Part shown: positions 23,754 to 62,691 of the stretch, piece after piece
Position numbering within the stretch: the stretch's first letter is position 1
Layout: each line of letters begins with the position of its first letter
DNA from: an uncultured Clostridia bacterium
GTDB lineage: Bacteria > Bacillota > Clostridia > Oscillospirales > CAG-272
Reading direction: 5' to 3'
DNA: 62,972 nt
NCBI GenBank assembly: GCA_946404035.1
Contig: CAMJCC010000001.1
Location: 1-62,972 of the forward strand
The notes under the pieces: generated by a model
What the model was told of the DNA's origin: nothing
What the model saw: the letters and a program-made list of their open reading frames with translations, nothing else
The model's database searches: none
Made by a program: the position numbers and the translations under genes

Positions 23754-23759
23754 GAAAAG

Positions 23760-26099: not shown

Positions 26100-26124
26100 G
26101 GAAGAAAAAAGGGGGTGAGCGCGT

Positions 26125-27282: not shown

Positions 27283-27317
27283 CGGGTATCGCCCCCTTTC
27301 CTACCTTTTATACACAT

Positions 27318-27346
27318 ATTATAACATATTATGAAGAAAAATGCAC
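27318..27346 (-). promoter_or_regulatory. promoter of the CarD-like gene (GTGCAT-17-TGtTATAAT)
   Basis: Extended -10 box in an AT-rich island. Confidence 0.45.
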
Positions 27347-27375
27347 GGGGTTTCGGGCAAAAAAATCATTTTTCG

Positions 27376-28194: not shown

Positions 28195-28297
28195 TGTTTT
28201 TCCATCCTCCCGTTCGGTCAAAGTCGCGCAGAAAAGTTGCGCATTGTTGCTCATTTTTCAGAAAACGAGGGATTATTTGCCTTTTTTTGCGCCATCC

Positions 28298-28326
28298 TTG
28301 CATTTTCTTTTCAAAAAGATTATACT
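28298..28326 (+). promoter_or_regulatory. promoter of the FAD-oxidoreductase operon (TTGCAT-17-TATACT)
   Basis: Plus strand. The spacer contains CTTTTCAAAAAG, an inverted copy of the downstream repeats. Confidence 0.55.
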
Positions 28327-28373
28327 ATACGCGGATAAAAAAGTAAAGAGAAAACGGCGAAACTCCCGCACGG

Positions 28374-28394
28374 TTTTGAAAAGTTTTTGAAAAG
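28374..28394 (+). promoter_or_regulatory. tandem direct repeat TTTTGAAAAG x2 (11-nt period), candidate DeoR/GlpR operator
   Basis: 28374..28383 and 28385..28394, between the promoter and the RBS. Related TTTTCAGAAAA at 28256..28266 lies upstream of the regulator gene. Confidence 0.4.
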
Positions 28395-28442
28395 GTTTTC
28401 AGGATCGTGCGCAAAAGACGTTTTGCCGGGGAGGAGAAAGTG

Positions 28443-29879: not shown

Positions 29880-29880
29880 A

Positions 29881-35000: not shown

Positions 35001-36193
35001 CGGCTTCCTGCACGACCGCCGGTTCCAAATCCAAGCACTGCACGGTCTGCAATCAGAGCATCCCCGGTACGGAAGTGACCATTCCGGAGGCGCATACCCC
35101 GGCGCAAAACTATACCGTGGAGCTGCCGGCGACCTGCATGTACGGCGGCACGAAGGTCCTTTACTGCACCACGTGTCACGAGGTCCTCGATACGCAGGAT
35201 ATCCCGAGTGACCCGGACGCGCACGTCGTGGACGACTGGACCGTGACCAAACAACCGACCCTGGTCGAAAAAGGGAGCCGGAACGGCGTGTGCCTGCTGT
35301 GCAGTACGCACGTCTACGAAACGCTGGTGTCCGAGCCGACCGTTCTGACCTGCACCTCCTCGACCGGATCGAACTACAAAACCAACAACGTCAATTATTC
35401 GGACATCCTCGGCGAAAAGCACTTCTATCCGACCAACGCGGATCCCGAGGGCAACGACCTCCTGATCGAATATTCGATCCTCTGGAACGAAACGATGCTT
35501 CATCTGAACGGATCGAAGGACCCCTATATCACCACCCGTATCGGTACTGACCCCGTCGTTTACTGGTCGCCCACGTTCAACATAAGTTACAGCGACTGTC
35601 CGTATGCCGGCGGCTTTGAGTGGACGGGCAACTTTATGACCCCCATCACCGACGGCGACGCGACCACCCCGATAGGGATGTGCAGCGGCGGCGATCAATT
35701 CGCCGACTATCCCAACGTCGGCGGCGCCGATCCGGATAACGTCGAATGGGGCTGGCATCGCGTCCAGATCCGCGTTCATCAGGCGCTGATCGACGAGGCG
35801 ACGCTACGGGCGAAACCCGACGGCACGACCGCTGACGTGAAAGACTACGTCACGACCGTCACCGTTTATATCGACGGCGTTGCGGCGTTCAAAATCTCCA
35901 CCGGCACCAATGGCTTGCAGAAGATCGCAGATAACCTCTTCATAGCGCAAGCGGACGGCACCGGAGACATCAACTACGCCGACGGTACCGCTTACGCCGT
36001 GGCGTTCTCGATCAACAAGATGAATTCACTCGACGGCACGACCGCATATATCGCGCTCGCAGACGTCAACGTGACCGCGGGCAAAGACTTCGTCCAGCGG
36101 GTCGAAAAGGTGGCATCGCCCGCCGCAGCGACCCTGACGGTCGACGACGGCGTGGAACTTGCCGCACCGATCTACTACAGACTTGCAGACTGA
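32063..36193 (+). CDS. 1376-aa mosaic surface lipoprotein (stalk repeats, SBP-like domain, Cys3His modules, YYRLAD C-terminal domain)
   Basis: GGAGGT RBS and lipobox LAFVSCG. N-terminal 410 aa are collinear with 3750..6359. The central ~500 aa resemble large family-1 solute-binding lipoproteins. Four Cys modules at 34838..35329. The C-terminal domain is homologous to those of 58506..61100 and 61252..62580. Confidence 0.8.
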   Translation: MKTLRVLFIALLLLCLALAFVSCGDEATPAETTGTAASAPAETTGTAASIEAKIVSFEGFTLNGTTLSVTVPNAVDSLPFPDRIAVSDGATWQVTTDREGRNVVPSKSVSLAEGDNTFYVLVTAEDGKTVGSYTVHIRRTPLYTVTFETSGGTAIAPVKVEEGGSVTAPATDPTRTGYAFAGWDNDFTAPVTGNLTVTANWTPNTDTAYTVEYYLENAAGTGYDKNSTEPKTGTTGASVTAQQKAFDHFTYTATGSNPTGVIAGDGSLILKLYYVRDTYTVNFVGNGGTLKTGSANQHVRYGGAAVLPTYARNGYEFTGWENAEGYDAVVENMTITAQWRILTYTVTYELDGGTNDPANPATYQITDDVALAAPTRGEENFVGWYLPNGQKVDNLKGLYGNLTLTARWGADPDKWEKIGGELSSLDAKYRNLKIEMSTYGDAEKQSKNDLYLAGPDTVDNATRDILKLVYRRNAEANAALGTTVEYVYWSNYGWGSQANQIKQIVYAASSDAPNLFVNMIYDLGNATLLGCFKDVFGLNNSYFDFSCEGWMSEWMNGLSLTGDRAYILGGDYFLDIYRSMAVLPFNAAMMNDYGATLAPALFGSALGAGETMTGRFYDYVEAGNWTWDALAKLSAAIWQDTDGSGQTSINDRLGIIADANSGFCAAVVLYSADVTLTENYSNNGQSWIRYPASSAALGGIFDAVSGVFGGNGALVTNGSTNSATIENPGLAYHNVKFSEDMLLFAGPRMLCAMEDDVFQLMGNAVSVVPMPKVSSEKRYRTLIHNVADAGAINVNTNSSKATVLSAYLQFCAEASSGIKNEYLDRYVKYSTFSYTNGTSRMLDLIYDGIASGRDKSIDDLMNTDSSIKSKRWHAIIKDHAFRWTADDLASVYQSAVTEKQSRLDDVLETWYTLPKGTGGSSGHTNHVWATDYTVDRAATCTVAGAKSIHCTSCNAIKPGSEVSIPVIAHAPSADYTVDTPASCTTAGSKSKHCTVCNQSIPGTEVTIPEAHTPAQNYTVELPATCMYGGTKVLYCTTCHEVLDTQDIPSDPDAHVVDDWTVTKQPTLVEKGSRNGVCLLCSTHVYETLVSEPTVLTCTSSTGSNYKTNNVNYSDILGEKHFYPTNADPEGNDLLIEYSILWNETMLHLNGSKDPYITTRIGTDPVVYWSPTFNISYSDCPYAGGFEWTGNFMTPITDGDATTPIGMCSGGDQFADYPNVGGADPDNVEWGWHRVQIRVHQALIDEATLRAKPDGTTADVKDYVTTVTVYIDGVAAFKISTGTNGLQKIADNLFIAQADGTGDINYADGTAYAVAFSINKMNSLDGTTAYIALADVNVTAGKDFVQRVEKVASPAAATLTVDDGVELAAPIYYRLAD
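32145..32209 (+). repeat. 33-bp tandem duplication in the lipoprotein linker
   Basis: A 32-nt perfect repeat CGCCCGCCGAAACGACCGGGACCGCTGCGTCA at 32145 and 32178, encoding PAETTGTAAS twice. Confidence 0.85.
34838..35329 (+). repeat. four tandem Cys3His modules in the 1376-aa lipoprotein
   Basis: HVWATDYTVDRAATCTVAGAKSIHCTSC / HAPSADYTVDTPASCTTAGSKSKHCTVC / HTPAQNYTVELPATCMYGGTKVLYCTTC / a degenerate fourth module (CLLC). Confidence 0.8.
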
Positions 36194-46228: not shown

Positions 46229-46354
46229 TACGTTTACAAAAAATATTTTAAATTATGATAAACCGCGATTATCCGCAAGCATCCGCGATTAACCGAAACG
46301 GCGTCTTGACAATCTCTTGAATTCTCGCTCAATCTCCCGTTTTCTCTTAAATGC

Positions 46355-46954
46355 TCAAAAAAAGTCGTCGTCCGGAAGAGGGTGCGAGAGCAGCGAAAAG
46401 AGGCAAAAAACAGAAAAATAAAATCCCGCGCCAAAGGCGTAGAGGAGCGAAAAAGACGCGGTCAGGGAGAGAAAGAGCGAAAGATAGGAGAGCCACGCGC
46501 AAAAAGTCGTTGCCCGCGCGTACCCGACGCGAAAAGACAGGAACGCGTGAACGGCGCGCCCGCCGTCGTGGTCGGATACGGGGATCAGGTTGGAGAGCCC
46601 CGTCAGAAGAAAGATCCACCCCGCCTCGGCAGCGTAGGGCTTCCCCGCCCCGCACAGAACGAGCAGTAGCCCCGGGAGCAGGTTGGCGGCGGGTCCCGCC
46701 AGGGCAACGAAACACTCGGCGCGGTAGGAGAGATACGCGGGGCAGAGGATGCGGAACCCGCCCGACGCGGGACAGATCCGCGGGACCCCCTCTCCGAGCA
46801 AACCGTACGCGGCGATATGTCCCCCCTCGTGGGAGAGGAGCGCGGCAAGGAACAGGATCGCGCGGTAGGGCGGCGTAAAGCGGAAAAGAAAAAAGAGCGA
46901 GAGCAGAACGGGGATCCACGGCAAAACCGTAGCCGCGATCCGTTTTCCCCGCAT
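46355..46954 (-). CDS. M50/site-2-protease-like membrane metallopeptidase
   Basis: Start MRGKRIA after a GGGAGGA RBS. HExxH present as SHEGGH, a second motif NLIPVSDHDGG, polytopic. Confidence 0.62.
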   Translation of the reverse strand: MRGKRIAATVLPWIPVLLSLFFLFRFTPPYRAILFLAALLSHEGGHIAAYGLLGEGVPRICPASGGFRILCPAYLSYRAECFVALAGPAANLLPGLLLVLCGAGKPYAAEAGWIFLLTGLSNLIPVSDHDGGRAVHAFLSFRVGYARATTFCAWLSYLSLFLSLTASFSLLYAFGAGFYFSVFCLFSLLSHPLPDDDFF

Positions 46955-47077
46955 AGTTCCTCCCGCTCGTTCCGCCGGCGGGGGCGGGTCCCCGACGCCG
47001 CGCCCGACTTTTCCCGCCGACGGATAGTGCATCGTATGAAAAGAGGAAAGAAATCATACCAAACGGGGTCCCGCCGA

Positions 47078-47106
47078 TTGACTTTTGACGCCGTTTGGGG
47101 TACAAT
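47078..47106 (+). promoter_or_regulatory. promoter of ligA (TTGACT-17-TACAAT)
   Basis: Plus strand, 47 nt upstream of ATG 47154. Confidence 0.55.
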
Positions 47107-47108
47107 AG

Positions 47109-49160
<2,052 letters not shown>

Positions 49161-49172
49161 AATAATCAAACG

Positions 49173-49208
49173 AAAAAGGGACCGGAGATCCGGTCCCTTT
49201 GTTTTTTT
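49173..49208. terminator. bidirectional terminator (ligA / ABC-2 permease)
   Basis: GGGACCGG-agat-CCGGTCCC flanked by A5 and TTTGTTTTTTT. Confidence 0.8.
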
Positions 49209-49213
49209 GATTA

Positions 49214-50044
49214 TCAGGCGAGGTTGAGTTTGCGGTCGATCAGGCGCGCGTTGAGGAAGAACAGCCCGACCGAGAAGCACGCGTAGAGCACCGTTTCCGC
49301 GATCCAGACGAAGAAGAAGAACGACGAACCGAGGAGTTCCTCGGCGTCGCCCGTTACGAGGATCATGGTCGGGATCGCCTCGATGAGGGTCTTGATCAGC
49401 GACCACGCCATATAGGCGGCGATGCAGAACCCGATCGCGCCGCCGATCTTCGCCTTTCCCTGAAAGACCACCGCGCCGAGCGTGACGCCGGTGTAGAAAA
49501 GGTTGATGATGAACGTCACGAGGAAGATCACGTAAAAGACCAGTTCGACGGCGACCCCCGCGTTGAAGTCACCGAGGAAGCCCAAGGACAGCCCCTTGAC
49601 GCTCGCAAGCGTCAGGTGGAACGCGTAGAAGATCGTATGTCCGGGATAGAGGATGGTCTGGGTCACGAAAAACGCGAACCCGATCGAGAAGAACGCGACG
49701 ACAAGATACCCCGTCGTCAGGATCACGGCGTAGAGGACCTTGGACAGGAGCAGCAGTTTCCGCGGAACGGGGAGCAGCAGCGTGACGTACCCGGCGTCCC
49801 CGAACATCCCGATATAGTAGCGGACGATGAGCAGAACGGGGAGCAGCGCGATCGAAAGGAACAGAGCGATCAATCCGATCACGTACATCGTTTCCAGCCC
49901 GATCTCGACGACGGAGTTATGGATCCTGTTGCCGAGGTAGCCGATCATACCGATGGCGAACGCGACCGCCGGGGTCAGGAGCAGAAGCGGGATCACGAAC
50001 CGCTTGATCGACAGAAAATCGTATTTCAAAAGTTTCTTTAACAT
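49214..50044 (-). CDS. ABC-2-type transporter permease
   Basis: Six hydrophobic segments. Overlaps the upstream ATPase gene by 7 nt. Confidence 0.62.
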   Translation of the reverse strand: MLKKLLKYDFLSIKRFVIPLLLLTPAVAFAIGMIGYLGNRIHNSVVEIGLETMYVIGLIALFLSIALLPVLLIVRYYIGMFGDAGYVTLLLPVPRKLLLLSKVLYAVILTTGYLVVAFFSIGFAFFVTQTILYPGHTIFYAFHLTLASVKGLSLGFLGDFNAGVAVELVFYVIFLVTFIINLFYTGVTLGAVVFQGKAKIGGAIGFCIAAYMAWSLIKTLIEAIPTMILVTGDAEELLGSSFFFFVWIAETVLYACFSVGLFFLNARLIDRKLNLA

Positions 50045-50742
50045 CTGAACGCCTCCCGGAACATTTCGTCAAGCGACTTTCCCTCCCGTTTTCTCGCCTC
50101 GTCGGCGCTGTCGTAGCAGACAAGACGCCCGTCGCGGATGAAGACGAACTCGTCGATCACCTCTTCGACGTCGGCGATCAGGTGCGTGGAGATCAAAACG
50201 GTCGCGTCGGGCGCGTGGCAGGAGAGGATGGTGCGGAGGATATATTCCCGCGCGGCGGGGTCGACGCCCGAGATGGGCTCGTCGAGCAGATAGAGTTTCG
50301 CCGCCCGCGACATCACGAGCGAAAGCTGGACCTTTTCGCGCATCCCTTTCGAGAGTTTGGAGAACGGCTTGTCGAGCGGGATGCCGAGGTCGGCAAGCAT
50401 CTTCTCGGCTTTGACGCGGTCAAAATCCTGAAAGAAATCGGCAAAATACGCCACCGCCTGTTCGGACGTCATCCAACCGGGAATGCTGTTCCGGTCGGGC
50501 AGATAGGCGATCATGGAGCGCGATTGGTCGCCCGGCGGGCAGCCGAGGACCGAAACGCTCCCGGCGTTCGGGGTAAGCAGTCCCGCAATGATCTTGATCA
50601 GCGTGGTCTTCCCGCTCCCGTTCGGGCCGAGGAGCGCCACGATCTTGCCCTCCGTCAAGGTGAGCGAAAAGTCGGAGAGCGACGGGAAGCTGCGGTAATA
50701 TTTCGTCAATCCGCTGACTTCAAGCAACGGTCGTTCCTGCAT
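50038..50742 (-). CDS. ABC transporter ATP-binding protein
   Basis: Walker A GPNGSGKTT, signature LSKGMREKV, Walker B LYLLDEP. AAGGAG RBS. Confidence 0.85.
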   Translation of the reverse strand: MQERPLLEVSGLTKYYRSFPSLSDFSLTLTEGKIVALLGPNGSGKTTLIKIIAGLLTPNAGSVSVLGCPPGDQSRSMIAYLPDRNSIPGWMTSEQAVAYFADFFQDFDRVKAEKMLADLGIPLDKPFSKLSKGMREKVQLSLVMSRAAKLYLLDEPISGVDPAAREYILRTILSCHAPDATVLISTHLIADVEEVIDEFVFIRDGRLVCYDSADEARKREGKSLDEMFREAFRC

Positions 50743-53523: not shown

Positions 53524-53565
53524 AAAAACCCGTCCGCGTTTTGCGGACGGGTTTCTTGCTTTTAT
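53524..53565. terminator. bidirectional terminator (TIM-barrel gene / glycosidase-like gene)
   Basis: ACCCGTCCGC-gtttt-GCGGACGGGT flanked by A5 and a T-rich tract. Confidence 0.75.
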
Positions 53566-55307
53566 TTCGTTCCCCAGACGGCTTCGTTTTCTTTGAAGAA
53601 ATCCCGGTCCATCCAATCGTAGACCCAGGCGGCGACGCTGCTTCTCGCGTGCAGGGGCGCGCCGTCGGCGCGGATCGGAGAATAGCACTCGATCGGGGTG
53701 TAGCATCCGTGTTTGACACTCCAACCGAACGAAGAGGTCAGAGCGTAGGTATAGTCCCGCCCGTGCTTTTGTTGCGCGTAGGCGACCAGCGCCGACCAAA
53801 ACGGCCAGACGCCGCCGTTCTGACACGCGTAATCCTCCGCGGAGCGATTGTAGCACCGGTCGGCTCCCCGGTAGAAGGGATAGACGCTCATCACGCCGAA
53901 GTCGCCCGCCTGTTGGCTTTGGTTGTTCCTCGTTTCGAGCAGCGCCGAAACGTTGTCGAGCAGGCGCGCGGTCTGCTTTTCGTCGGAAATGCCGAACAGG
54001 ACGGCGAGGATCGTATCGACCGAGAGGTTGTCCTCGACAAAGTCGCCGTCGCGGTAGTTGACGTAATACCCCTTTCCGTCGTCCCAGAGGATCCTGTTGA
54101 TCGCGCCTTTCGTCTGCTCGAACATCTCGCGGTAACGGCGGGCGCGGGTCTTGTCCCTCGTCCCGACGATCGTGGAAAGGCAGAAGAGCGCGCGGGCGTA
54201 GAGTACCTCGACGTAGGTGACGTACCCCGTCCGGTTGATCTGATCCGCCCAATCGAGTTTGTTGTACCGCCCGCTCTTGACGATCAGCCCCGTTTTGTCT
54301 TCAAAGGTCGACAGCCGATCGATGACGAGCAGACAAAGGTCGAAGACGCTCTTGCCGTTCACGGTCTCAAAGAGGATCGAGCGGTCGCCCGTACGGTTGA
54401 TATAGTCGTAGACCATAAGGATGAAGAAGCACGGACTGTCGTAATAGTTGCGAACACGCGGGCTGAAATCAACCAGCACACCGGAAGGGCAATCGCCGTT
54501 CTCCTTGATCCCGCGCGCGAGCGTCAGGATCTGATTTCGGATCAGGTCGGGGCGGGTCTTATACATCGAAAGCACCGTCCAGTAGGCGTCGCGGAAATAG
54601 GTCCGGACGGGGATCTCGCGGTGACCGCTCGCACAAAAGCCCTTGAATAGCCCGATCTCCCGATAGTTTTCGAGCGCGCAGAAGATGCTGGAAACGTAGA
54701 GCGCCCGTTCCTTTTCGCTTTTTGACGACGCGGGGATCTTCACTTGTCTGAACTCGTCGACGACCTGCTTTTTATACGCCGCAAAACGCGACAGCAGCGT
54801 GGTACAGTACTTTTCGCTCGTGTAGGAAAAAACCAGCAGCGCGCTTCTGCGCGTGCGCAGATGGATCGTGTTGTTTTCGGCGATATATCGCGTTTCGACG
54901 TCGGTGTCGTAGTGGACTCCGTTTTGCGCCCGGCTGAAATCCATAACGAATTCGTAGTCGCCCGGTTTATTCGCCGTGAACTCGTAAAAAACCGCGTTCT
55001 CGTTCGGCGAAACGAACTGAAGGATCTTGATCCCGACCCCGCCGTCTTTCAAAAGGATCTTCTGCATCCGTCCGGCAAGCTCCACTCTTTTTTCACAGAA
55101 CGCGTCAAGTTTTCTGCCGTCGGCAAACACGTTCAGGACGGTCCGCCTCACGCAACTGCCGCTCTGGTTGGAAACGGTATAGTTCGTGATCCCGCCCTTG
55201 CCGTCGAATTGGACGTGCAGTTCGTTCGACGAAACGTCGTAGGGGACGTCCTCGTTCAGCTTTCCCGCTACGAAGAAGATCTTTCCGTTCCGAAAGCACT
55301 TTTTCAT
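53562..55307 (-). CDS. cytoplasmic (alpha/alpha)6 six-hairpin glycosidase-like protein (GDE_C/GH63-like)
   Basis: No signal peptide. The C-terminal half has barrel-type blocks (GLIVKSG..LDWADQ, GYYVNY, GDFGVMSVYPFY, QNGGVWPFW). Family assignment is by recollection only. Confidence 0.55.
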   Translation of the reverse strand: MKKCFRNGKIFFVAGKLNEDVPYDVSSNELHVQFDGKGGITNYTVSNQSGSCVRRTVLNVFADGRKLDAFCEKRVELAGRMQKILLKDGGVGIKILQFVSPNENAVFYEFTANKPGDYEFVMDFSRAQNGVHYDTDVETRYIAENNTIHLRTRRSALLVFSYTSEKYCTTLLSRFAAYKKQVVDEFRQVKIPASSKSEKERALYVSSIFCALENYREIGLFKGFCASGHREIPVRTYFRDAYWTVLSMYKTRPDLIRNQILTLARGIKENGDCPSGVLVDFSPRVRNYYDSPCFFILMVYDYINRTGDRSILFETVNGKSVFDLCLLVIDRLSTFEDKTGLIVKSGRYNKLDWADQINRTGYVTYVEVLYARALFCLSTIVGTRDKTRARRYREMFEQTKGAINRILWDDGKGYYVNYRDGDFVEDNLSVDTILAVLFGISDEKQTARLLDNVSALLETRNNQSQQAGDFGVMSVYPFYRGADRCYNRSAEDYACQNGGVWPFWSALVAYAQQKHGRDYTYALTSSFGWSVKHGCYTPIECYSPIRADGAPLHARSSVAAWVYDWMDRDFFKENEAVWGTK

Positions 55308-55345
55308 ATCATTATTCTCAACTTCCGTTTCTCGTTACCGGAAAT

Positions 55346-55374
55346 ATTATACAATAAAAGACGGCTTTTGACAA
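55346..55374 (-). promoter_or_regulatory. promoter of glycosidase-like gene 53562..55307 (TTGTCA-17-TATAAT)
   Basis: Immediately downstream of the lyase terminator, on the minus strand. Confidence 0.5.
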
Positions 55375-55381
55375 GGTCTTT

Positions 55382-55428
55382 CCCGTCTTTTGGAAAAAAG
55401 ACGGGGCGCGGATGGCTTCACGCCCCGA
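55382..55428 (-). terminator. terminator after the lyase gene
   Basis: Minus strand: CGGGGCG-12 nt-CGCCCCG followed by TCTTTTTT. An overlapping alternative hairpin is CCCGTCTTTT/AAAAGACGGG. Confidence 0.6.
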
Positions 55429-55440
55429 ACAAGCGGCGCT

Positions 55441-58260
55441 TTACGGGTTCGGCAGTTCATCAAATCCGATCGCGTCGTAGTCGTCGACGTCGACGTCGAG
55501 ATTGTCGTCGCAGTCAAGTTCCCCTCCGTCGTACGGAACCAACGTGACTGCCCCGACGGGCGCCCTAAAGGCGACGAAGCCCCCGTCGGCGCTCGCGTGT
55601 ACTGTTCCGACGGTGTTCCCGCCTACCCGTACTTTCCAGTCGCCCTCGGAAACGCCCGAAACGTAGTAGTTCAGCGTTCCCGCGCCCGGTGCGGTGAAAG
55701 AGAAACTCGCCGTCTGCCGGGTCGGGGATTTCACGAAGACCGCCGCCGTGTTCCCGATCACGACACCCTCCGTCTCCGACGAGTAGAACCGCGTCGCCGT
55801 CAGATCCGGGTCGTTTGCGGCGTCGCAGACGTAGATCACGTTCAGAAGATCGTTCGTCAGATTTCCTGTGGTCGGGCTGATCTCGACGCGGCCCCAGTAC
55901 CCGTCGTCCCCGGCGGAATACTGCACGCCGTTCACGTCGTAGTTGTGCCCCGATCCCCCGATCTTCGTGATGCTGTCGCCGCCGAGCACGCTCTGCAGGA
56001 CGAGTTTTCTCGCCCCGACGTCGACCGTTACCCGATTGCCCGCGATCGTCGGCTCCGCCGGAACATGAAGCAGGAAGGTCTTTTTGTAACTTCCCGATTT
56101 CGCCTTGATCCTATCGAAGACGAAGAAGAACATCGGCACGTCTTCGTTTTCGGTATCGAAGACGGTCAGCATCCGGCGGTTGACGGTATCGGCTTTCGTA
56201 CTGTAGGCGGGCTGCAGGTTGCCGGCGATATAGGCGTAGGTCGGGGTCGATCCGTCGTAGCCGTAGGAAACTCCGGTCACCTCGCCCGTCAGATAGCCGT
56301 CGCTCTGCCAGTTGGCGTAACTGCCCGGTTCGCTCGGCTGTTTCTGTCCCGCCCCGTCGATCAGGATACAGTTGTGCGCGACCGTCGCCTGGTGATACCG
56401 CAGATGGTGGCTGTCGCCGTACTCGTCGTAGGAACCGGTATCCCCCGCCAGCATCACGTCCTTATACCAGATCTGGAACTGTCCCGCGTCGGCGTGGTCG
56501 TGGTTGCCCGACGTGCGGCATCCGATCTTCATCAAAACCGCCGCCGCGTTAGAACTGCTCCATCGGTTCCGCGCGATGATCTGTCCGAGCCAGCCGCCGT
56601 TATAGAGGATCAAGGGCATTCCCTCGTGCCGGTCGGACGCCGGGGTCAGATTGGTGGACGAGCAGATCAGGTATTCGGGCACGCTCGAAACGAACGAGTA
56701 GTAGGCGTCGTGGAACTCGGAATAACTCCAATAGTTGTATTCGAGCAGTTTCCGCATCGTCGCGTCGTCAAACAGGTAGGAGGACAGCAGCGCGTTGCGC
56801 CCGTAATCGAGAAACTCGCGGTCGTTCGAGTGGTCGTCGCCCGACGCGAACGCCTTGTGTCCGCTCGTCGTCAATTCGTAACTGTAGACCGTGCGCATGA
56901 CCTGCTTCATGTTTGCTTCGCTTTCGTAGGGGAAAACGCCGGTCGCCGTTTTCACGAGCAGCGCGGAATAAAGATCCGACGCGAAGCGCAGTCGGACGTA
57001 AAGAGACGCGCCCTGCGGGTACATCCCCGCCTCGTAAAACTCGTTCCGCACGGGGACGTATTCGTCGTAGAAGCGGTCGGCGATATAGTTCCACCACCCC
57101 GGATACTCGTCGTAGATCGCGATGGCAAACGACAGGTAATCGCGGAGCAGTTGGAGCTCTGCGCCGTGTCCCGTGACGGCGTTCTCGTCGTTCGGCGGGA
57201 AACCGATCTCCATCCGACCGTTCCGGCAGCATTTGTTTTCTACCCCGAGAACGATCTGCTGTTTGTCGGCGTCGGAAAGAAGATCGTAGCACCAGTCGTA
57301 GACGCAGGCGGCGTCATACATCACCATCCCGTACATCCGGGCATAGTCGTCCAGAGACTTCCAGTTACCGGTCGTTTTGAGGGCGTTTTTGATCGCGTAG
57401 ATCGCGAGGTACCCCGAATAGGGGTTGCCCGTCATCCGGTAGTCGAGCGCCAACAGCTGAATATCGTTCAGCACGCCGGGATCAAAGCCGCCGGACAGGT
57501 TCCCGTCGGTCGGGTCAGCGTGTACCGCCTCGTATTTGGTCGAAACCGAATCGTAATCCTGCGATTGCTGCGCCGGAGCGTTCCGATACGCCGTCCGGAT
57601 CCCCGGAAGATCACTTTCGGTGAAGAGAACGCGCGGGTGCTGCCCCCTCGTCGGGTTCCTTACGAGGGCATCGTAGCCCGTCCCGTTCCCGAGGTTTGCC
57701 GTTACGCTCCCGCCCCCGAAATTCGAGTTGGTGAACGAGGCGATCTGCGTTTGCAGAGTCGGGATCGAGAAACCGCCCTCCGCCGAAAGCGCGTGCAGTT
57801 CGCCGTAGCGGATGCCCTCGCCGTCCTGAACGTACGGGCGGACGTAGATCGGCGTGTCGAACGACGCCTGCGGGACGTCGGTCACCTTGACCGCGACCCA
57901 AAAACGCCCCTCGGACGCGCGGACCCGCTTTCCGTTGGCGTAAACCTCGGCATATACTGTCGCCGTCTGATAGACTTGACAGCCGGCGTCCCCGACCGTC
58001 GGATCAATATTCGTTTTTGATAAAACGAAGCCGACGTTGGTATAATCAAGCGACCCGACCGTGAAGAGAAAACGCAGAGAGGTGCTCGCCGACCCGAGCG
58101 TATCGCCCGCCGTCATCTGATAGCCGAAGTCGTCGATCTCGCCCGCCGGTTCGTCCGCGTTACCGCGGATCGAGAAGAGCATGACAAGGGCGAGCGAAAG
58201 GATCGCCGCCAGTGCAAAAACCGACGTGATCACCCTCGGTTTCATCGAAACTTTTTGCAT
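55441..58260 (-). CDS. secreted heparinase II/III-like polysaccharide lyase with an extra N-terminal module
   Basis: Start MQKVSMKPRV after an AAGGAGA RBS, with a signal-anchor helix. Heparinase II/III-type block GNHDHADAGQFQIWYKDV...HNCILI. Residues ~41-153 are homologous to the N-terminus of 58506..61100. Confidence 0.72.
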   Translation of the reverse strand: MQKVSMKPRVITSVFALAAILSLALVMLFSIRGNADEPAGEIDDFGYQMTAGDTLGSASTSLRFLFTVGSLDYTNVGFVLSKTNIDPTVGDAGCQVYQTATVYAEVYANGKRVRASEGRFWVAVKVTDVPQASFDTPIYVRPYVQDGEGIRYGELHALSAEGGFSIPTLQTQIASFTNSNFGGGSVTANLGNGTGYDALVRNPTRGQHPRVLFTESDLPGIRTAYRNAPAQQSQDYDSVSTKYEAVHADPTDGNLSGGFDPGVLNDIQLLALDYRMTGNPYSGYLAIYAIKNALKTTGNWKSLDDYARMYGMVMYDAACVYDWCYDLLSDADKQQIVLGVENKCCRNGRMEIGFPPNDENAVTGHGAELQLLRDYLSFAIAIYDEYPGWWNYIADRFYDEYVPVRNEFYEAGMYPQGASLYVRLRFASDLYSALLVKTATGVFPYESEANMKQVMRTVYSYELTTSGHKAFASGDDHSNDREFLDYGRNALLSSYLFDDATMRKLLEYNYWSYSEFHDAYYSFVSSVPEYLICSSTNLTPASDRHEGMPLILYNGGWLGQIIARNRWSSSNAAAVLMKIGCRTSGNHDHADAGQFQIWYKDVMLAGDTGSYDEYGDSHHLRYHQATVAHNCILIDGAGQKQPSEPGSYANWQSDGYLTGEVTGVSYGYDGSTPTYAYIAGNLQPAYSTKADTVNRRMLTVFDTENEDVPMFFFVFDRIKAKSGSYKKTFLLHVPAEPTIAGNRVTVDVGARKLVLQSVLGGDSITKIGGSGHNYDVNGVQYSAGDDGYWGRVEISPTTGNLTNDLLNVIYVCDAANDPDLTATRFYSSETEGVVIGNTAAVFVKSPTRQTASFSFTAPGAGTLNYYVSGVSEGDWKVRVGGNTVGTVHASADGGFVAFRAPVGAVTLVPYDGGELDCDDNLDVDVDDYDAIGFDELPNP

Positions 58261-58357
58261 ATTTTTCTCCTTTTGCAAGAGAGAAACGCCGGGCGGACGC
58301 CCGGCGTTTCCGCGGCAATTGTTTTTTCCGCGCCTCCCGCGCGGGGAGGCAAAGGGA

Positions 58358-58486
58358 TCAGAGCGAGCCGAAACTGAACTCGTCCCAGCCGTCCTCCGCA
58401 AGCGTTCCGCCCGAGGTGATCAGCATATCAAGACCGAGCAGAACGATCCTGATCTCGGCGGTTTCGTAGGTCTTTTTCTCTTTCAT
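58358..58486 (-). CDS. unannotated 42-aa ORF (MKEKKTYETAEIRIVLLGLDMLITSGGTLAEDGWDEFSFGSL)
   Basis: Hand translation. ATG lies 19 nt after the upstream stop and 9 nt after AAAGGGG. Roughly 73% G/C at third positions, as in neighbouring genes. Too short for the ORF track. Confidence 0.35.
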   Translation of the reverse strand: MKEKKTYETAEIRIVLLGLDMLITSGGTLAEDGWDEFSFGSL

Positions 58487-58505
58487 TTCAAAATACCCCT
58501 TTCAA

Positions 58506-61100
58506 TCAGTCGGCGAACCGATAGTAGATCGCCGCCGGGTAGTTGTTGCCATCGATCTCGATCGACGCCGCCGCTGGATCGGCGACCGCCTCGACCTGCT
58601 GGACGAAATCACGACCGCAGGTCATCGACTGATCGGCGATCACGAGATAGTTGTCCGAACCCTTGTAGTAATCGACGATGGTGATGTTTGCCTTCGCGGC
58701 GCTGATATCGTTGTCGTGATAAACCAGTTGATCGTTCTCGATCGACGCGGTAAAGAGCAGCGCGCCGGGCGTATCGGTCGCCCAAGCCGACGAGTCGTAT
58801 TGGAGGATCATTTCGCCGTCCAGATAGATCGTAATGATATACGTGTACTCCACGGCGGCGCCGACCTTCGCCGCTTCCTGATGGACGCGGGCGCCGACGC
58901 GATGCCAGCCGTACTCGCCGATATTCGGGTGCCGGTCCTCGGGATTGGTCGGATAGACGTAGGTCGTGCCTGCCCTCTCTTTCGCGGAAAACTTGCCGGG
59001 CGTTGCACTCTGCAGATCGATATTGGCGATATCCGAACCGTCGTTGACGCCGATGTCAAAGGTCGAACCTGATCCGTAGACGGACGCCATCGTACTGTTC
59101 CAGAGGATCGAGAACTCGATCAGAAGGTCGTTGCCGTTGTAGCCGTTCGACGCGTCGGGGTAAAAATGACCTTCGCCGCGAAGAGATTGGAATGTCGGTC
59201 TGACGTCCCAGGTACCTTTCGTCTTGCTGCTTGATTTCAAGATGGTCGGACCGCCGTACGCCACCACCCCGTAGACTGTGTCGTGGCAGAGCGTGCATTC
59301 GCCGGTCTTCGTGCCGTCGGCGAGCAGCGTCGGTTGGACGGTGGTCGTCCAGGAAGCGACGTCATGCGCGTTTGGATCGACGGCAACGACGCGCGCCGTA
59401 TCGGAAACGATCGCGTCGCAAACGGTGCAATGCTTGGATTCGGAACCCGCCGCTACGCAGGTCGGAGCCAGATCGAGCGTATACTCGGCGGCGGGGGTAT
59501 GGGCGACCGTCGCGATCGGTTCCACCGTTTCGGGAATGATCGCATCGCACAGCGTGCAGTGCTTGGAGCGCGAGCCCGGTGTAGTACAGGTCGGCGCAAG
59601 ATCGACCGTGAATTCCGCCGCCGGCGTATGCGCGTCTCCCGTCTCGGGGATCACGACGATGGTATCGTCGATGATCGCGCCGCAGACCGTGCAGTGATAA
59701 GACTTGTAGCCGGAGGTCGTGCAGGTCGGTGCAAGATCGACCGTATACTCCGTCGCGGCGATATGGTCGTGCGTAAGGGTGAACCACATCTTCGCGGACA
59801 GATCGACGCTCTCCTCGACCTCGATGGTGGCGTCTGCGGGATCGTAGACCGGAACGACGCTCTGCACGAAATCGGTACCGCAGGTCATGAAAGGATCGGC
59901 AATTCCGAGGTAGGTGTTCGACACGGTATAATAGCTCTCGATGGAGATCGAACCCTTGCTGTTGTTTGAAGTATTGGCGTGATAAACCAGTTGATCGTTC
60001 TCGATCGTCGCGGTGTAGAGCAGCGCGCCGGGATTGGCGGTCGCCCAAGTCGACGAATCGAATTTGAGGATCATTTCGCCGTCCAGATAGATCGTAATGA
60101 TATACGTGTACTGCACGGCGGCACCGACTTTCGCTGCTTCCTGATGGACGCGGACGCCGACGCGATGCCAGCCGTACTCGCCGATGCTCGGACGTTTGAC
60201 CGTTTCATCCGCCGTGATCTCACCCGGCGTCGGATAAATATACGTCGTGCCGGTTCTCTCTTTGGCGGAGAATTTGCCGGCGTTTCCGCCTTTCAAATCG
60301 ATATTGGCGATATCGGAACCGTCCGAGACGCCGATGTCAAAGGTGGATCCTGCTCCGCTGTTCAGCGACCCGTTCCAGAGGATCGAGAACTCGATCAGAA
60401 GGTCGTTGCCGTTGTAGCCGTTTGACGCGTCGGGATAGTACTTTTCCTCACCGCAAATATTCTTGTAGGGGCGGGAATCGATAAAACGGTTTCCGTAGGC
60501 ACAGTATTGTCCCGACGTCGGAAGGTTCGAGTTCAGAACATAGGGCTCGCCGCTCTTGACGCCGTCCAGGTTACATCCGTCGCAATGCCCCGGTAAGAGC
60601 TGCGGGTCGTGCTTGTGTCCCGCGGCGGAGCAGACGGTCGTATCCAGCGTTTCGCCGTACCGGATCTCCCCGTCGTCGACGTAGGGACGGACGTAGAGCG
60701 CGCCGTCAAAGTATTCGTGCGGGATATCGGTCAGTTTGACCGCGACCCAAAAGCGGCCGTCCCCCGCCGATTGCGGCGTTCCGCTCGCTATGATCGTAGA
60801 GTAGACCTTGCTCGTCGGTTTTTTGACGCAGCCCGCGCCGCCGACCGTGGGAGCGGCGTTCGTTTTCGAGAAGACGAAGCCGACCTCGTCGTAAGCGAGG
60901 GTCCCGATCGTGAAGAGGAAGCGCAGATCGGTGTCTGCGTCGCCGGCAAGATCAAGCGCCGAGAGGGTCTGGACCCCGTAGTCCTCGATCTCCGCGGGTT
61001 CCGCCGACGCCGTGATCGGCAGGATCACAGCGACCGAAACGACCAGGATCGCAAAGATCAGGAGGAGCGACAAGCTCCCTGCTTTCGTTTTGTTCTTCAT
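58506..61100 (-). CDS. 864-aa secreted protein: shared N-module, two copies of the YYRxAD-type domain flanking four Cys3His modules
   Basis: AAGGAGAA RBS. Signal peptide ...ITASA/EP. Internal duplication (residues ~221-442 and ~646-864). Ends IYYRFAD. Confidence 0.75.
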   Translation of the reverse strand: MKNKTKAGSLSLLLIFAILVVSVAVILPITASAEPAEIEDYGVQTLSALDLAGDADTDLRFLFTIGTLAYDEVGFVFSKTNAAPTVGGAGCVKKPTSKVYSTIIASGTPQSAGDGRFWVAVKLTDIPHEYFDGALYVRPYVDDGEIRYGETLDTTVCSAAGHKHDPQLLPGHCDGCNLDGVKSGEPYVLNSNLPTSGQYCAYGNRFIDSRPYKNICGEEKYYPDASNGYNGNDLLIEFSILWNGSLNSGAGSTFDIGVSDGSDIANIDLKGGNAGKFSAKERTGTTYIYPTPGEITADETVKRPSIGEYGWHRVGVRVHQEAAKVGAAVQYTYIITIYLDGEMILKFDSSTWATANPGALLYTATIENDQLVYHANTSNNSKGSISIESYYTVSNTYLGIADPFMTCGTDFVQSVVPVYDPADATIEVEESVDLSAKMWFTLTHDHIAATEYTVDLAPTCTTSGYKSYHCTVCGAIIDDTIVVIPETGDAHTPAAEFTVDLAPTCTTPGSRSKHCTLCDAIIPETVEPIATVAHTPAAEYTLDLAPTCVAAGSESKHCTVCDAIVSDTARVVAVDPNAHDVASWTTTVQPTLLADGTKTGECTLCHDTVYGVVAYGGPTILKSSSKTKGTWDVRPTFQSLRGEGHFYPDASNGYNGNDLLIEFSILWNSTMASVYGSGSTFDIGVNDGSDIANIDLQSATPGKFSAKERAGTTYVYPTNPEDRHPNIGEYGWHRVGARVHQEAAKVGAAVEYTYIITIYLDGEMILQYDSSAWATDTPGALLFTASIENDQLVYHDNDISAAKANITIVDYYKGSDNYLVIADQSMTCGRDFVQQVEAVADPAAASIEIDGNNYPAAIYYRFAD
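58509..59165 (-). repeat. intragenic duplication, copy 2 of the YYRxAD-type domain
   Basis: Long identical runs with 59775..60440, for example a 41-nt run CATTTCGCCGTCCAGATAGATCGTAATGATATACGTGTACT and a 48-nt run CCAGAGGATCGAGAACTCGATCAGAAGGTCGTTGCCGTTGTAGCCGTT. Confidence 0.85.
59265..59774 (-). repeat. four tandem ~44-aa Cys3His modules (H-x13-C-x9-HC-x2-C)
   Basis: HIAATEYTVDLAPTCTTSGYKSYHCTVC / HTPAAEFTVDLAPTCTTPGSRSKHCTLC / HTPAAEYTLDLAPTCVAAGSESKHCTVC / a degenerate fourth module with only CTLC. Confidence 0.8.
59775..60440 (-). repeat. intragenic duplication, copy 1 of the YYRxAD-type domain
   Basis: See 58509..59165. Copies are offset by about 1.26-1.28 kb. Confidence 0.85.
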
Positions 61101-61251
61101 TTCATTATTCTCCTTACTTGATTATCGTCGTACCTCCCGACCGGAAACGGTCCGGAGGGCGGTTTTGGGTGTTTTCGAGAGGATACCGGGGCCGCCGGAT
61201 ACGGGAACAGGAGAAAAACCGTACCGGTCAGCCCCGGGTTGTTGCGTTCAA

Positions 61252-62580
61252 TCAGTCGACTTTTGCTTGGAAATACATCGCCGCGGGAGCGATGACGTCG
61301 TCAGAGGTGTCTTCGGTGCCCAGATCGTCGAGAGTAAGGGTCGCAGGCGCGGGATCGGCGACCGCCTCGACCTGCTGGACGAAATCGTGACCACAAGTCA
61401 TATAGGTATCGGCGATCGCACAGTAGATATCGGTCCCCTTGTAGAAGTCATAGATCGCGATCTCGCCCCAGGCGTTCTGCGCGTCATTGTCGTGATACAC
61501 CAGTTGATCATCCTCGATCGTCGCGGTGTAAAGCAGCGCGCCCTTGTTGTCCTTCGCCCACTTGGACAGATCGAACGCGAGGATCAGTTCGCCGTCAAGG
61601 TACGTTTCGCCGGTAAAGACGTAGACCACGGCGCCCTCGACGATCGTCGCCTCCTGATGGATGCGGATGGCAACGCGGTGCCAGCCGTAGTCGCCGATGC
61701 TCGGATACTTCGCACTCGGATCTGCCGCAATCGCGGCAGCGCTCGGAGTCGACAGGATCGCGCCCTTGCCGTCGTTCCGGTCACGGGCGGAGAAGCCGCC
61801 GACGACCGTGCCGTAGCGGGCGTTCGCATTCTCATTCAGTTTGAGGTTTACGAAGTCGGAGCCGTCGCCGACCGTGATATCGAAGGTCCAGCCGTTCCCG
61901 TGCGACAGCGTTTCGTTATAAAGGATCGAGAACTCGATCAGGAGGTCGTTGCCCTTGTCATTTTCTGCGGTCGGATAGAAGTGGTCTTCCCCGCGGATCG
62001 TGGAATAGAGCCGTTTGTCCACTTTGTTCCCGGACGCCTTGTCGTTGGCGTTCCAGATATCCGGCTCGTAGGTCAGTTCTACGACGACCGGGTTGTCGCA
62101 GATCACGCAGGTGCCGGTTTTGCTGCCGTTCGGCGAAAGCAGGGTGGGTTCGACCGTGACCCATTCCTCCACCTTATGCGCGTTCTTGTCGATCTCCAAC
62201 GGCACGACGGTACTTTCAACGATCTGTCCGCACTGAACGCAGTGCCGGGACTTGGAACCCGCTGTCAGACAGGTCGGTTCCTTATCGGTCGTGTAGTCGT
62301 CAGACGGGATATGCGCCGTTTTTTCGATGGGCTCGGTGGAGCCGGGCTTCATCGCGTTGCACTTGGAACAATGGATGGACTTGGAGCCCTCCTGCGCGCA
62401 GGTGGCGGGGACGTCGATCGTGTACTCGGTGCTCCATTCGTGGGCGCACTCGGTCGTTGCGGCGGTGGTCTCCGGAGCCGCAGTGGTGCTCTTTGCCTTA
62501 TCTTTTCCGCAGGACGCGAAAGCAAAAACGCAAAGAACAAGGGAAAGGACCAGCGCGAGAATAACCGATAGTTTTTTCAT
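61252..62580 (-). CDS. 442-aa lipoprotein: three Cys3His modules plus a YYRxAD-type domain
   Basis: Start MKKLSVILALVLSLVLCVFAFASCG (lipobox) after an AAGGAGAA RBS. Domain blocks FYPTAENDKGNDLLIEFSILYN, IGDYGWHRVAIRIHQEA, YLDGELIL, DQLVYH, MTCGHDFVQQVEAVADPA. This copy ends MYFQAKVD instead of YYRxAD. Confidence 0.75.
   Translation of the reverse strand: MKKLSVILALVLSLVLCVFAFASCGKDKAKSTTAAPETTAATTECAHEWSTEYTIDVPATCAQEGSKSIHCSKCNAMKPGSTEPIEKTAHIPSDDYTTDKEPTCLTAGSKSRHCVQCGQIVESTVVPLEIDKNAHKVEEWVTVEPTLLSPNGSKTGTCVICDNPVVVELTYEPDIWNANDKASGNKVDKRLYSTIRGEDHFYPTAENDKGNDLLIEFSILYNETLSHGNGWTFDITVGDGSDFVNLKLNENANARYGTVVGGFSARDRNDGKGAILSTPSAAAIAADPSAKYPSIGDYGWHRVAIRIHQEATIVEGAVVYVFTGETYLDGELILAFDLSKWAKDNKGALLYTATIEDDQLVYHDNDAQNAWGEIAIYDFYKGTDIYCAIADTYMTCGHDFVQQVEAVADPAPATLTLDDLGTEDTSDDVIAPAAMYFQAKVD
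62077..62448 (-). repeat. three tandem Cys3His modules in the 442-aa lipoprotein
   Basis: HEWSTEYTIDVPATCAQEGSKSIHCSKC / HIPSDDYTTDKEPTCLTAGSKSRHCVQC / a degenerate third module (CVIC). Confidence 0.8.
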
Positions 62581-62662
62581 TTTTGTTCTCCTTTTATTTA
62601 TTGATACGGGGGGGATATCGGACAAACGACTGCAGCGTCGCGCGCCCTTCCCCCTTGCCTCC

Positions 62663-62691
62663 ATTGTACACGATTGAATACCAAATTGCAA
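62663..62691 (-). promoter_or_regulatory. promoter of the 62580..55441 gene string (TTGCAA-17-TACAAT)
   Basis: Minus strand, about 75-nt leader before ATG 62580. Confidence 0.5.

Follow-up and report, generated by a model that had tools for sequence, protein, structure and literature searches.

What might a short run of genes accomplish when several of its products carry the same large domain and that domain belongs to no named family? The question is raised by a stretch of 62,972 nucleotides from an uncultured Clostridia bacterium (GenBank assembly GCA_946404035.1, contig CAMJCC010000001.1, positions 1 to 62,972; here, the whole stretch is called the window). On its minus strand lie five genes that we call lipo442, sec864, orf42, lyase939, and gh581, and a sixth gene, big1376, lies on the plus strand elsewhere in the window. 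A C-terminal domain, which we call DOM, is common to lipo442, sec864, and big1376. A sequence-only reading of the window had named these six open reading frames (ORFs), all of which our ORF listing and translation placed at the same coordinates, and had proposed a surface locus for capturing and degrading glycans, a proposal that our analysis supports in part. We tentatively favor the explanation that the five genes form a lineage-specific surface capture-and-cleavage unit of an uncultured herbivore-gut Clostridium, directed at an acidic or uronate-containing polymer.

The locus and the domain its products share

The first gene, lipo442 (61252..62580, minus strand), encodes a 442-aa protein that consists of a lipobox (FAFASC), a low-complexity linker, His-Cys3 modules, and one DOM; the ribosome-binding site (RBS) AAAGGAG lies 5' of its ATG. 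The product of sec864 (58506..61100, minus) is 864 aa long and comprises a signal sequence, an immunoglobulin (Ig)-like N-terminal module (here, the N-module), a first DOM (DOM1), four Cys modules, and a second DOM (DOM2). Located 19 nt 3' of sec864 is orf42 (58358..58486, minus), a 42-codon ORF with an acidic product that has no signal peptide, followed by lyase939 (55441..58260, minus), whose 939-aa product combines a signal sequence, an N-module, and a heparinase-II-type (PL21-like) lyase at aa ~207-905. The last gene, gh581 (53562..55307, minus), encodes a signal-less 581-aa protein that resembles six-hairpin (alpha/alpha)6 glycosidases or phosphorylases. Outside the locus, big1376 (32063..36193, plus) encodes 1,376 aa with cadherin-like and Listeria-Bacteroides repeats, a middle region of ~480 aa, Cys modules, and a long-form DOM. 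The N-termini of lipo442 (MKKLSVILALVLSLVLCVFAFASCGK) and big1376 (MKTLRVLFIALLLLCLALAFVSCGD) both contain the lipobox pattern [LVI][ASTVI][GAS]C, by which the two are predicted lipoproteins. The closest lipoprotein to lipo442 is a 98%-identical protein, P0013, on a 1.7-kb contig of the rumen metagenome-assembled genome (MAG) GCA_017963335.1; here and below, P and L followed by a number label relative proteins and relative loci, respectively.

The common C-terminal domain, first noticed in the sequence-only reading, was confirmed by BLASTP (E values of 1e-112 to 7e-20), which aligned aa 172-442 of lipo442, aa 185-430 and 613-864 of sec864, and aa 1091-1376 of big1376. A hidden Markov model (HMM) scan of the window found exactly four copies in the three genes. 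These are the DOM of lipo442 (aa 168-442 by HMM envelope; 61255..62079, minus), DOM1 of sec864 (aa 181-445 by HMM; 59766..60560, minus), DOM2 of sec864 (aa 613-864; 58509..59264, minus), and the divergent long form in big1376 (by HMM; 35321..36190, plus). The domain was thus correctly recognized, with its size estimated at 220-240 aa instead of the about 250-290 aa that we measure. Neither BLASTP nor the HMM scan found DOM in the lyase939 protein of the window. Conserved motifs of the domain are HFYP..GNDLLIEFSILWN, IGEYGWHRVG.R.HQEA, Y.DG, and AD...TCG.DFVQ.V..V..P., and its invariant polar residues, numbered as in the modeled construct, are E55, N61, W125-H126-R127, H133, D154, Y187, D189, and D216. 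The DOM proteins end in ...YYRFAD, ...YYRLAD, and ...QAKVD.

DOM, the Cys modules, the N-module, and the orf42 product had no match in Pfam-A (2025 copy) or NCBIfam (June 2026). When sec864, a profile of the N-module, and the big1376 middle region were used as queries against PDB sequences, no match was returned. These searches bear out the earlier statement that the Cys module and the C-terminal domain lie outside the named families. Scans of the locus proteins against Pfam and NCBIfam likewise agreed with the sequence-only reading in finding no LPXTG, SLH, dockerin, or cohesin signature; CWB2 was also unmatched in the six proteins, and none of the six had a dockerin or cohesin match in Pfam at E <= 0.1.

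Family, predicted fold, and architectures of DOM

The DOM family is real but small. A word-indexed search returned two relatives, and a HMMER profile search over 1.84 billion representatives returned 237 clusters, 141 of them at E <= 1e-30. When we scanned 185,579 species genomes with a pattern built on DOM alignment A1, we located 18 loci in six MAGs, all of them from uncultured Clostridia of the rumen or horse feces. Single genomes carry several such loci: six in RUG12450, five in RGIG10200, and four in SRR10912538_bin.17.

We modeled DOM2 of sec864 with AlphaFold2 from a 30-sequence alignment and obtained an all-beta structure (pLDDT 93.5, pTM 0.91). A Foldseek search of this model against the PDB gave distant matches of one class (best E = 6.5e-4, TM scores of 0.2-0.35), and across the PDB and a library of predicted viral structures together the matches had probabilities of up to 1.0 and TM scores of 0.2-0.39. 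In the PDB, the neighbors are the botulinum neurotoxin (BoNT) Hc-N domain, legume lectins, Emp47p, a trans-sialidase lectin domain, the L-lectin module of SraP, and the domain of unknown function TtX122B; among the predicted viral structures, they are jelly rolls of the concanavalin (ConA)-like or LamG-like type from the tail and receptor-binding proteins of phages. On the strength of this model, DOM is likely to be of the ConA/LamG-like jelly-roll class, with a specific family not assignable. The guess of a LamG/concanavalin-like jelly roll in the sequence-only reading therefore fits as far as the fold class is concerned, and no close relative emerged.

Two architectures dominate the family. 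The commonest is a lipoprotein of ~420-470 aa that consists of a lipobox, a low-complexity linker, two or three Cys modules, and one DOM; about half of all family members share the lipobox. In the second, a signal sequence and an N-module are followed by one to six DOMs, and proteins made of the N-module and DOM only also exist. Pfam scans of long family members additionally revealed fusions of DOM to catalytic and adhesin-type domains. These include heparinase-II/III-type lyases (P0146, P0108, P0127, P0117, and a protein of L008), EEP phosphoesterases (P0004, P0147, P0091, and a 1,230-aa protein of L001), NPP-type phosphodiesterases (P0133, P0149), a purple acid phosphatase (P0150), a GDSL esterase (P0044), and BspA-type leucine-rich repeats (LRRs) with Listeria-Bacteroides repeats (LRR_5/Flg_new; P0106). 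Fusions to EEP domains are about as frequent as fusions to lyases. Given this range of partners, from phosphoesterases and the GDSL esterase to LRR modules of adhesins, DOM appears to be a general targeting head rather than a lyase-specific part, and it does not appear to be specific to acidic-polysaccharide systems.

Stalk modules and N-terminal module

Tandem Cys modules separate DOM from the rest of the protein in the commonest architecture. BLASTP confirmed two type-A modules and a shorter one in lipo442, and three type-A modules and one shorter in both sec864 and big1376. The stalk of lipo442 (aa 47-165; 62086..62442, minus) contains two H-x13-C-x8-xC-x2-C units and a shorter H..W..C-x2-C unit; the stalk of sec864, delimited by BLASTP and module alignment, covers aa 444-612 (59265..59771, minus), and the modules of big1376 occupy 34829..35317 (plus). 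The modules themselves had been recognized in the sequence-only reading, with a spacing of H-x13-C-x9-HC-x2-C that we correct to H-x13-C-x8-(H)C-x2-C. We then compared 206 modules from 87 family proteins. The Cys residues at 0, +10, and +13 are present in 100% of these by construction, as they define the search pattern; a His at -14 is found in 79% and a Gly at +4 in 97%. The His beside the second Cys occurs in just 36%, so the conserved set is one His and three Cys. A His-Cys3 zinc knuckle is the natural reading of this pattern, and the modules probably bind zinc.

The N-module shared by sec864 and the lyase, another claim of the sequence-only reading, was evident in BLASTP as 53% identity over 143 aa (aa 11-150 of sec864, aa 13-154 of the lyase). 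We delimit it at aa 31-160 of sec864 (60621..61010, minus) and aa 35-161 of lyase939 (57778..58158, minus). AlphaFold2 modeled the sec864 module as an Ig-like beta-sandwich (pLDDT 93.7), and its Foldseek neighbors were generic Ig-like sandwiches only. Among 158 family proteins examined, 44 carry the N-module, always at residues ~31-165 and directly after the signal sequence. This constant position would be explained equally well by a membrane-proximal spacer and by a docking module for a common partner. The signal sequences of the N-module proteins (sec864 60990..61100 and lyase939 58150..58260, both minus) have a hydrophobic core of 20-22 residues followed by a conserved (S/T/G)-S-A-(D/E)-P. 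Whether such a sequence is removed as a signal peptide or stays uncleaved as a membrane anchor bears on surface retention.

Recurrence of the gene set in related genomes

The five genes recur as a set. Locus L003, from the yak rumen MAG RGIG10200, and L021/L022 have the same five-gene content and order as the window. Protein identities between the window and L021 are 64% for the lipoprotein, 67% for sec864, 67% for orf42, 82% for the lyase, and 75% for the glycosidase. In L003 and L021 the unit is flanked by unrelated housekeeping genes, with DUF711, TruB, and a UvrD/PD-(D/E)XK helicase-nuclease on one side and a Na/Ca exchanger on the other. The flanks of L003 and L021/L022 differ from the downstream flank of the window, where we observed a gene for a xylose-isomerase-like TIM barrel and, by eye, a look-alike of RluA-type pseudouridine synthases.

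Other loci preserve parts of the set in different arrangements. In L006, orf42, the lyase gene, and the glycosidase gene lie, in that order, between the gene for a DOM protein and that for a DOM lipoprotein. Two glycosidase paralogs flank four DOM genes and one orf42 in L016, which has no lyase. L028 begins with an EEP protein followed by orf42, a DOM lipoprotein, and a glycosidase paralog, with a GH39 gene and a second glycosidase paralog further on; its EEP gene, just 5' of orf42, extends beyond the edge of the locus and is not among the DOM fusions counted above. In L001, a lipoprotein, an 831-aa DOM protein, and a 42-aa ORF are followed by the 1,230-aa N-module/three-DOM/EEP protein in the position that the lyase occupies in the window. 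The sequence-only reading had said that a family without recurrent linkage to lyases or glycosidases would speak against its proposal. Because such linkage recurs in other assemblies (L003, L021/L022, L006, L016, and L028, together with the lyase fusions), the proposal is not refuted on this ground.

The lyase and the glycosidase-like protein

lyase939 matches heparinase II (PDB 2fuq) with E = 3.8e-72 in two stretches, aa 207-636 and 649-903, and Pfam detects Hepar_II_III_C (43.4 bits against a cutoff of 24) and HepII_C. The homology therefore spans both the alpha-toroid and the beta-sandwich domains of heparinase II, as expected of PL21. Taking the heparinase II residue number as the chain index in the alignment plus 25, we find that lyase939 keeps the equivalents of H202, E205, Y257, R261, N405, H406, H408, D425, and H451; conserved blocks in the HMMER alignment are GHGAE, YVRLR, NHDH, AGD, and AHN. 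The residues kept include His408, Asp425, and His451, which we take to be the zinc ligands of heparinase II. They also include its active-site residues, His202, Tyr257, and His406 (PMC10656541). The earlier assignment as a heparinase II/III-like lyase thus gains support from the active-site and zinc-site residues. With the heparinase II match, these residues, and an N-terminal export signal, lyase939 looks active. Against the HepB equivalog model NF045571 of NCBIfam, it scores 324.5 bits, below the cutoff of 600. We regard it as a PL21-type family member whose substrate is not to be inferred from the HepB score.

The relationships of gh581 are more distant. At E <= 0.1, its Pfam matches are limited to weak ones to Glyco_hydro_94 (37.2 bits), MGH1-like, Trehalase, and GDE_C. 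We found at least 338 clusters of homologs, in which every source-named protein is a hypothetical protein of a Clostridia bacterium, and precomputed Pfam annotations of 120 homologs give the same set as the query plus Bac_rhamnosid6H and DUF608. Over the whole family, then, only weak matches to GH94, GH63-like, trehalase, GDE, GH78, and GH116-type models are observed, which suggests that gh581 probably belongs to an undescribed family of glycoside hydrolases or phosphorylases. Members of this family are linked to DOM or orf42 genes in L003, L006, L016, L021, and L028. In a more distant genome (L027, GCA_045594025.1), a homolog with 45% identity lies beside two ABC permeases and large surface proteins, an arrangement that resembles the layout of a glycan-utilization cluster.

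orf42 and its homologs

The sequence-only reading listed the 42-codon ORF as a mere ORF and did not recognize a gene family. A profile search returned at least 381 clusters of homologs, 41-45 aa long, nameless, and without a Pfam match, with the consensus MnEKKvyEsAEIkIV.LDRDlLitSgGtLgE..Wd.FdFgsL. (lowercase letters as in the profile). Homologs occupy the same position in at least nine other loci. Seven of these (L003, L007, L013, L015, L016, L021, L024) have orf42 15-19 nt 3' of an N-module/DOM gene, and in L006 and L028 the upstream gene is truncated by the contig end; the L001/L002 contig is an exception in its spacing of ~150 nt. In every locus with a complete upstream gene, orf42 follows an N-module/DOM gene. 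Examples of homologs are found at 4694..4822 of L001, 10001..10129 of L021, 7789..7917 of L024, and 636..764 of L028.

Several features indicate that orf42 is a genuine coding gene of a strongly conserved small-protein family. Its RBS is GAAAGGGG in the window and GAAAGGAG in seven other distinct loci, dN/dS is 0.08-0.66 in 28 of 28 pairs, and third codon positions vary in 32 of 44 columns, compared to 17 and 17 for the first two positions. The RBS, the fixed length, dN/dS below 1, and the variability at third positions rule out a noncoding conserved element. The product has an isoelectric point (pI) of 4.3 and no signal peptide, and Cys occurs in 2 of 120 homologs.

We considered and rejected three further identities for the product. 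A leader or arrest peptide for the next gene is excluded in general, because L024 has a clean terminator directly 3' of orf42, with the next gene 444 nt away, and because the constant feature is the spacing to the upstream gene. A precursor of a ribosomally synthesized and post-translationally modified peptide (RiPP) does not fit, as no maturase is nearby and Cys is nearly never present; genes of the radical-SAM, LanC-type, cyclase, or peptidase-transporter kinds were not found beside orf42 in the window, L003, L021, L024, or L028. Mimicry of the first strand of the N-module, with which orf42 shares the motif (E/D)-x-A-E-I, did not hold up in hhalign (probability 0.15, not significant), and an hhalign comparison of orf42 with DOM was also not significant (probability 0.5).

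At L027 (3785..3919), we observed a 44-aa ORF, MKHQYETIELEIYIFENTDVITMSGSG..., directly after a gene for a 1,302-aa Big_2/Flg_new surface protein in the cluster of the gh581 homolog and ABC permeases. By eye, its N-terminal half is like that of orf42 (YET.E..I.....D..IT.SG); the orf42 HMM did not detect it. Such peptides may belong to a broader superfamily whose genes neighbor those of large surface proteins.

The constant pairing allows a bolder reading, which we consider unlikely: the sec864-type gene and orf42 would form a two-gene cassette in which a leaderless, acidic, 42-residue protein is the obligate partner of a lectin-like surface protein, and which, together with DOM and the His-Cys3 stalk, would make up a new surface-display and capture system. 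The orf42 product might then be a dedicated factor for export or folding, might block the DOM binding site inside the cell, or might be released as a signal. If this were true, the locus would represent more than a new carbohydrate-binding module (CBM); it would represent a system specific to a clade of herbivore-gut Clostridia.

Promoters, terminators, and spacers

A scan for promoters and terminators recovered both the intrinsic terminator-like hairpin 3' of lyase939 (55402..55427, minus; 9 pairs, 8 of them GC, with a T-rich tail) and the separate promoter-like site 5' of gh581 (TTGTCA-17-TATAAT; 55346..55374, minus; 11 of 12 positions matching) that the sequence-only reading had placed there. 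The site that it had called near-consensus 5' of lipo442 (TTGCAA-17-TACAAT; 62663..62691, minus) is present, with matches at 9 of 12 positions only. Because the three promoter-like sites in the region are no more than the 3.3 expected from shuffled sequence, these calls carry little weight.

Between orf42 and lyase939 lies a structured spacer of 97 nt (58261..58357, minus) with two hairpins, the second of which is a 12-bp GC stem followed by UUUCUCUCUU. The minimum free energy (MFE) of the spacer is -50.6 kcal/mol (z = -4.25), and L021 has the identical hairpin sequence. The terminator scan did not call a hairpin in the spacer. Given the GC hairpin with its U-rich tail, a single uninterrupted four-gene transcript is not assured; the hairpin may be a leaky terminator that lowers expression of the lyase relative to the binder genes.

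Weighing the explanations

In the explanation that we favor, DOM would be a ligand-binding head, either lectin-like or CBM-like, that is displayed by two routes. It would sit at the tip of the lipoproteins lipo442 and big1376, on a stalk of probably zinc-binding His-Cys3 modules, and it would also be carried by the Sec-exported sec864 behind the Ig-like N-module. lipo442 and sec864 would bind the polymer at the cell surface, where lyase939, exported with the common N-module, would cut uronate-containing chains by beta-elimination, using the His/Tyr/His machinery of heparinase II. Fragments would enter the cell through a transporter encoded elsewhere and would be trimmed after uptake by the cytoplasmic gh581 enzyme. 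The orf42 product would serve as a dedicated partner of the sec864-type protein. Our reading of DOM as a ligand-binding module draws on its probably lectin-like fold, on tandem arrays of up to six copies, and on its presence in the same chain as enzymes.

A number of observations weigh against this explanation or parts of it. Several of the domains fused to DOM are phosphoesterases, so the shared ligand could be something other than a polysaccharide. The distant structural matches of the DOM2 model would fix the fold class and not a sugar-binding site. DOM is acidic (median pI 4.5), which rules out polyanion binding through bulk positive charge; direct electrostatic binding of a polyanion is thus unlikely, so that the explanation would need to invoke a mode mediated by Ca2+. 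Heparin need not be the substrate of lyase939, since the score is far under the HepB cutoff. The Pfam scan of gh581 gave no match to GH88/GH105 (PF07470, Glyco_hydro_88), the family expected to finish unsaturated uronates, and gh581 does not appear to be an enzyme of that type. The conserved five-gene unit, judged from L003 and L021, includes no transporter or regulator, and no sugar transporter adjoins the unit in the window. Co-transcription of the unit is uncertain, given the intergenic hairpins. The nearest ABC system in the window, at 41.5-45.9 kb, has a polyamine/iron-type binding protein (SBP_bac_6/8); with a binding protein of this type and a position outside the conserved unit, it is an unlikely uptake partner.

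Two alternatives strike us as quite improbable, to a similar degree. According to the first, the DOM proteins would be adhesins for microbial or host polyanions (teichoic or teichuronic acids, capsules, extracellular DNA, or mucin- and glycosaminoglycan [GAG]-type glycans), and the enzymes would serve scavenging or competition rather than the use of dietary fiber. This would agree with the activities of the fused enzymes, which are mostly directed at phosphodiesters or uronates (EEP, NPP, purple acid phosphatase, PL21-like lyase), with the presence in the family of typical adhesin modules such as BspA-type LRRs, cadherin-like domains, and Listeria-Bacteroides repeats, and with a locus that has no sugar transporter. 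However, the six-hairpin glycosidase is repeatedly linked to DOM genes, and its homolog in L027 is clustered with ABC permeases; both suggest carbohydrate catabolism.

According to the second, DOM would be a noncovalent cell-wall anchoring module that binds the wall polymer of its own cell and displays varied enzymes and adhesins, and the locus would be one wall-displayed set among others. What makes DOM look like an anchor is that one module, in one to six copies, is found on lyase, EEP, NPP, purple acid phosphatase, GDSL, LRR_5, and Flg_new proteins, that several paralogs occur per genome (the six, five, and four loci mentioned above), and that the Pfam scan found no LPXTG, SLH, or other known anchor. 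The commonest members of the family decide against it: because they consist of an anchor, a stalk, and DOM only, DOM must be the functional head, and an anchor without cargo makes no sense. In addition, these predicted lipoproteins would already be lipid-anchored, with DOM at the far end of the stalk, and the lyase of the window has no DOM to hold it.

Still less probable is a protein assembly like that of cohesin and dockerin, the scaffold and common-partner idea of the sequence-only reading. Here the lipoprotein or sec864 would act as scaffold, and proteins with an N-module, the lyase among them, would dock on DOM. The N-module, 53% identical in sec864 and the lyase and constant in position in 44 family proteins, would suit such a role, as would the adjacency and synteny of the binder and enzyme genes. 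Against this, no cohesin or dockerin signature was found in the six proteins, and the N-module is a generic Ig-like sandwich with uninformative structural neighbors. Most N-module proteins also bear DOM, which leaves no clean division into scaffold and cargo, and elsewhere (L008, P0146, and others) the lyase and DOM are on one chain, which suggests that DOM targets the substrate in cis. Equally improbable is a catalytic DOM, an unrecognized family of jelly-roll lyases or hydrolases: its size of ~250 aa and its likely fold class agree with PL7, PL13, and GH16, its invariant polar residues are unusually many, and stand-alone DOM proteins are known, but the best 50 neighbors in each of the two structure libraries are lectins or receptor-binding domains, with no PL7-like or GH16-like jelly-roll glucanase or lyase among them, and up to six tandem copies and fusion to clear catalytic domains are typical of binding modules.

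Other content of the window

The remainder of the window contains further candidate surface proteins. In big1376, the only Pfam and NCBIfam matches are to cadherin-like domains and Listeria-Bacteroides repeats. Its middle region (33299..34760, aa ~413-900) had no Pfam, NCBIfam, or PDB match and is 46-48% identical to stand-alone proteins of L028 (5185..6411 and 6652..8379), one of which is a lipoprotein; it appears to represent a further unassigned family of extracellular domains in this lineage. Another series of putative surface-protein genes, none with DOM, extends over 2277..10952 (plus). It comprises an LRR_5 (BspA-type) protein (2277..3710), an 869-aa protein with cadherin-like and Listeria-Bacteroides repeats that is 38% identical to the N-terminal third of big1376 (3750..6359), and three ORFs without a Pfam match (6356..8077, 8254..9684, and 9519..10952), all on the plus strand.

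On the minus strand, 46347..50044 is high-GC sequence with candidate ORFs that have no Pfam match (46347..47213, 47370..49406, and 49214..50044), located just 3' of an ABC ATPase gene (50038..50742) on the same strand. Together, the ORFs of 46347..50742 may be an uncharacterized ABC-type permease or efflux unit. Housekeeping genes occupy 10964..31158, with FtsK (10964..14134), a PP-loop ATPase, a DUF512 radical-SAM-like protein, Rnf subunits (18563..23564), a heavy-metal P-type ATPase (23760..25976), and a DeoR regulator with FAD oxidoreductases (28407..31158). This content fits a chromosomal region of an anaerobic Firmicute.

Comparison with known systems

For the lyase, the closest known system is heparinase II of Pedobacter heparinus (HepB, PL21; PDB 2fuq/3e80), with which lyase939 aligns over both halves while keeping the active-site and zinc residues. 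It differs from HepB in its score below the HepB cutoff, in its extra Ig-like N-module, and in its origin from an anaerobic gut Clostridium rather than a GAG degrader of the Bacteroidota. ConA-like lectin and LamG jelly rolls, usually ligand-binding modules on multidomain extracellular proteins, resemble the DOM model in being all-beta and about 250 aa long and probably also in being two-sheeted, and they are the sole class of structural neighbors. DOM differs from them in having its own motifs, with TM scores of just 0.2-0.39 and no sequence similarity in Pfam, NCBIfam, or the PDB.

DOM also invites comparison with SLH, CWB2, and choline-binding repeats. Like these, it is a lineage-specific module that is reused in variable copy number, with unrelated partner domains and with several paralogs per genome. 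It differs from them in being a large lectin-like domain that occurs alone on lipoproteins predicted to be anchored already and that has no sequence relationship to them.

At the level of the gene set, the nearest known systems are polysaccharide utilization loci (PULs). Candidate binders with predicted lipid anchors are encoded beside an exported depolymerase and an intracellular glycosidase, as are the SusE/F-like surface glycan-binding proteins (SGBPs) and the binders of Gram-positive PULs, and DOM also occurs in cis on enzymes, as CBMs do in PULs. The five-gene unit differs in having no SusC/D pair, ABC transporter, or regulator, so that it does not qualify as a PUL by its transporter and regulator. 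It also differs in its other, unnamed binding domain, its zinc-knuckle-like stalk modules, and its conserved 42-aa protein.

If DOM is a binding head, it would found a new lectin-like or CBM-like family, and a surface outfit that joins a lipid anchor to a jelly-roll head through a zinc-knuckle stalk would be one not seen before in uncultured rumen and hindgut Clostridia. Further targets for study are a PL21-type lyase from a lineage other than the usual GAG degraders of the Bacteroidota, a new six-hairpin family, and the 42-residue protein family; their practical value would lie in new binding modules, new lyase specificities, and the annotation of dark matter in herbivore-gut metagenomes. No current concept is overturned. 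The kind of system is familiar, with genes for surface binders next to those for a depolymerase and a glycosidase. Judged by our searches, what is new to current libraries is the lectin-like domain family, the His-Cys3 stalk module, the six-hairpin enzyme family, and the 42-residue protein family, all four of which appear, as far as these searches reach, to be limited to uncultured herbivore-gut Clostridia.

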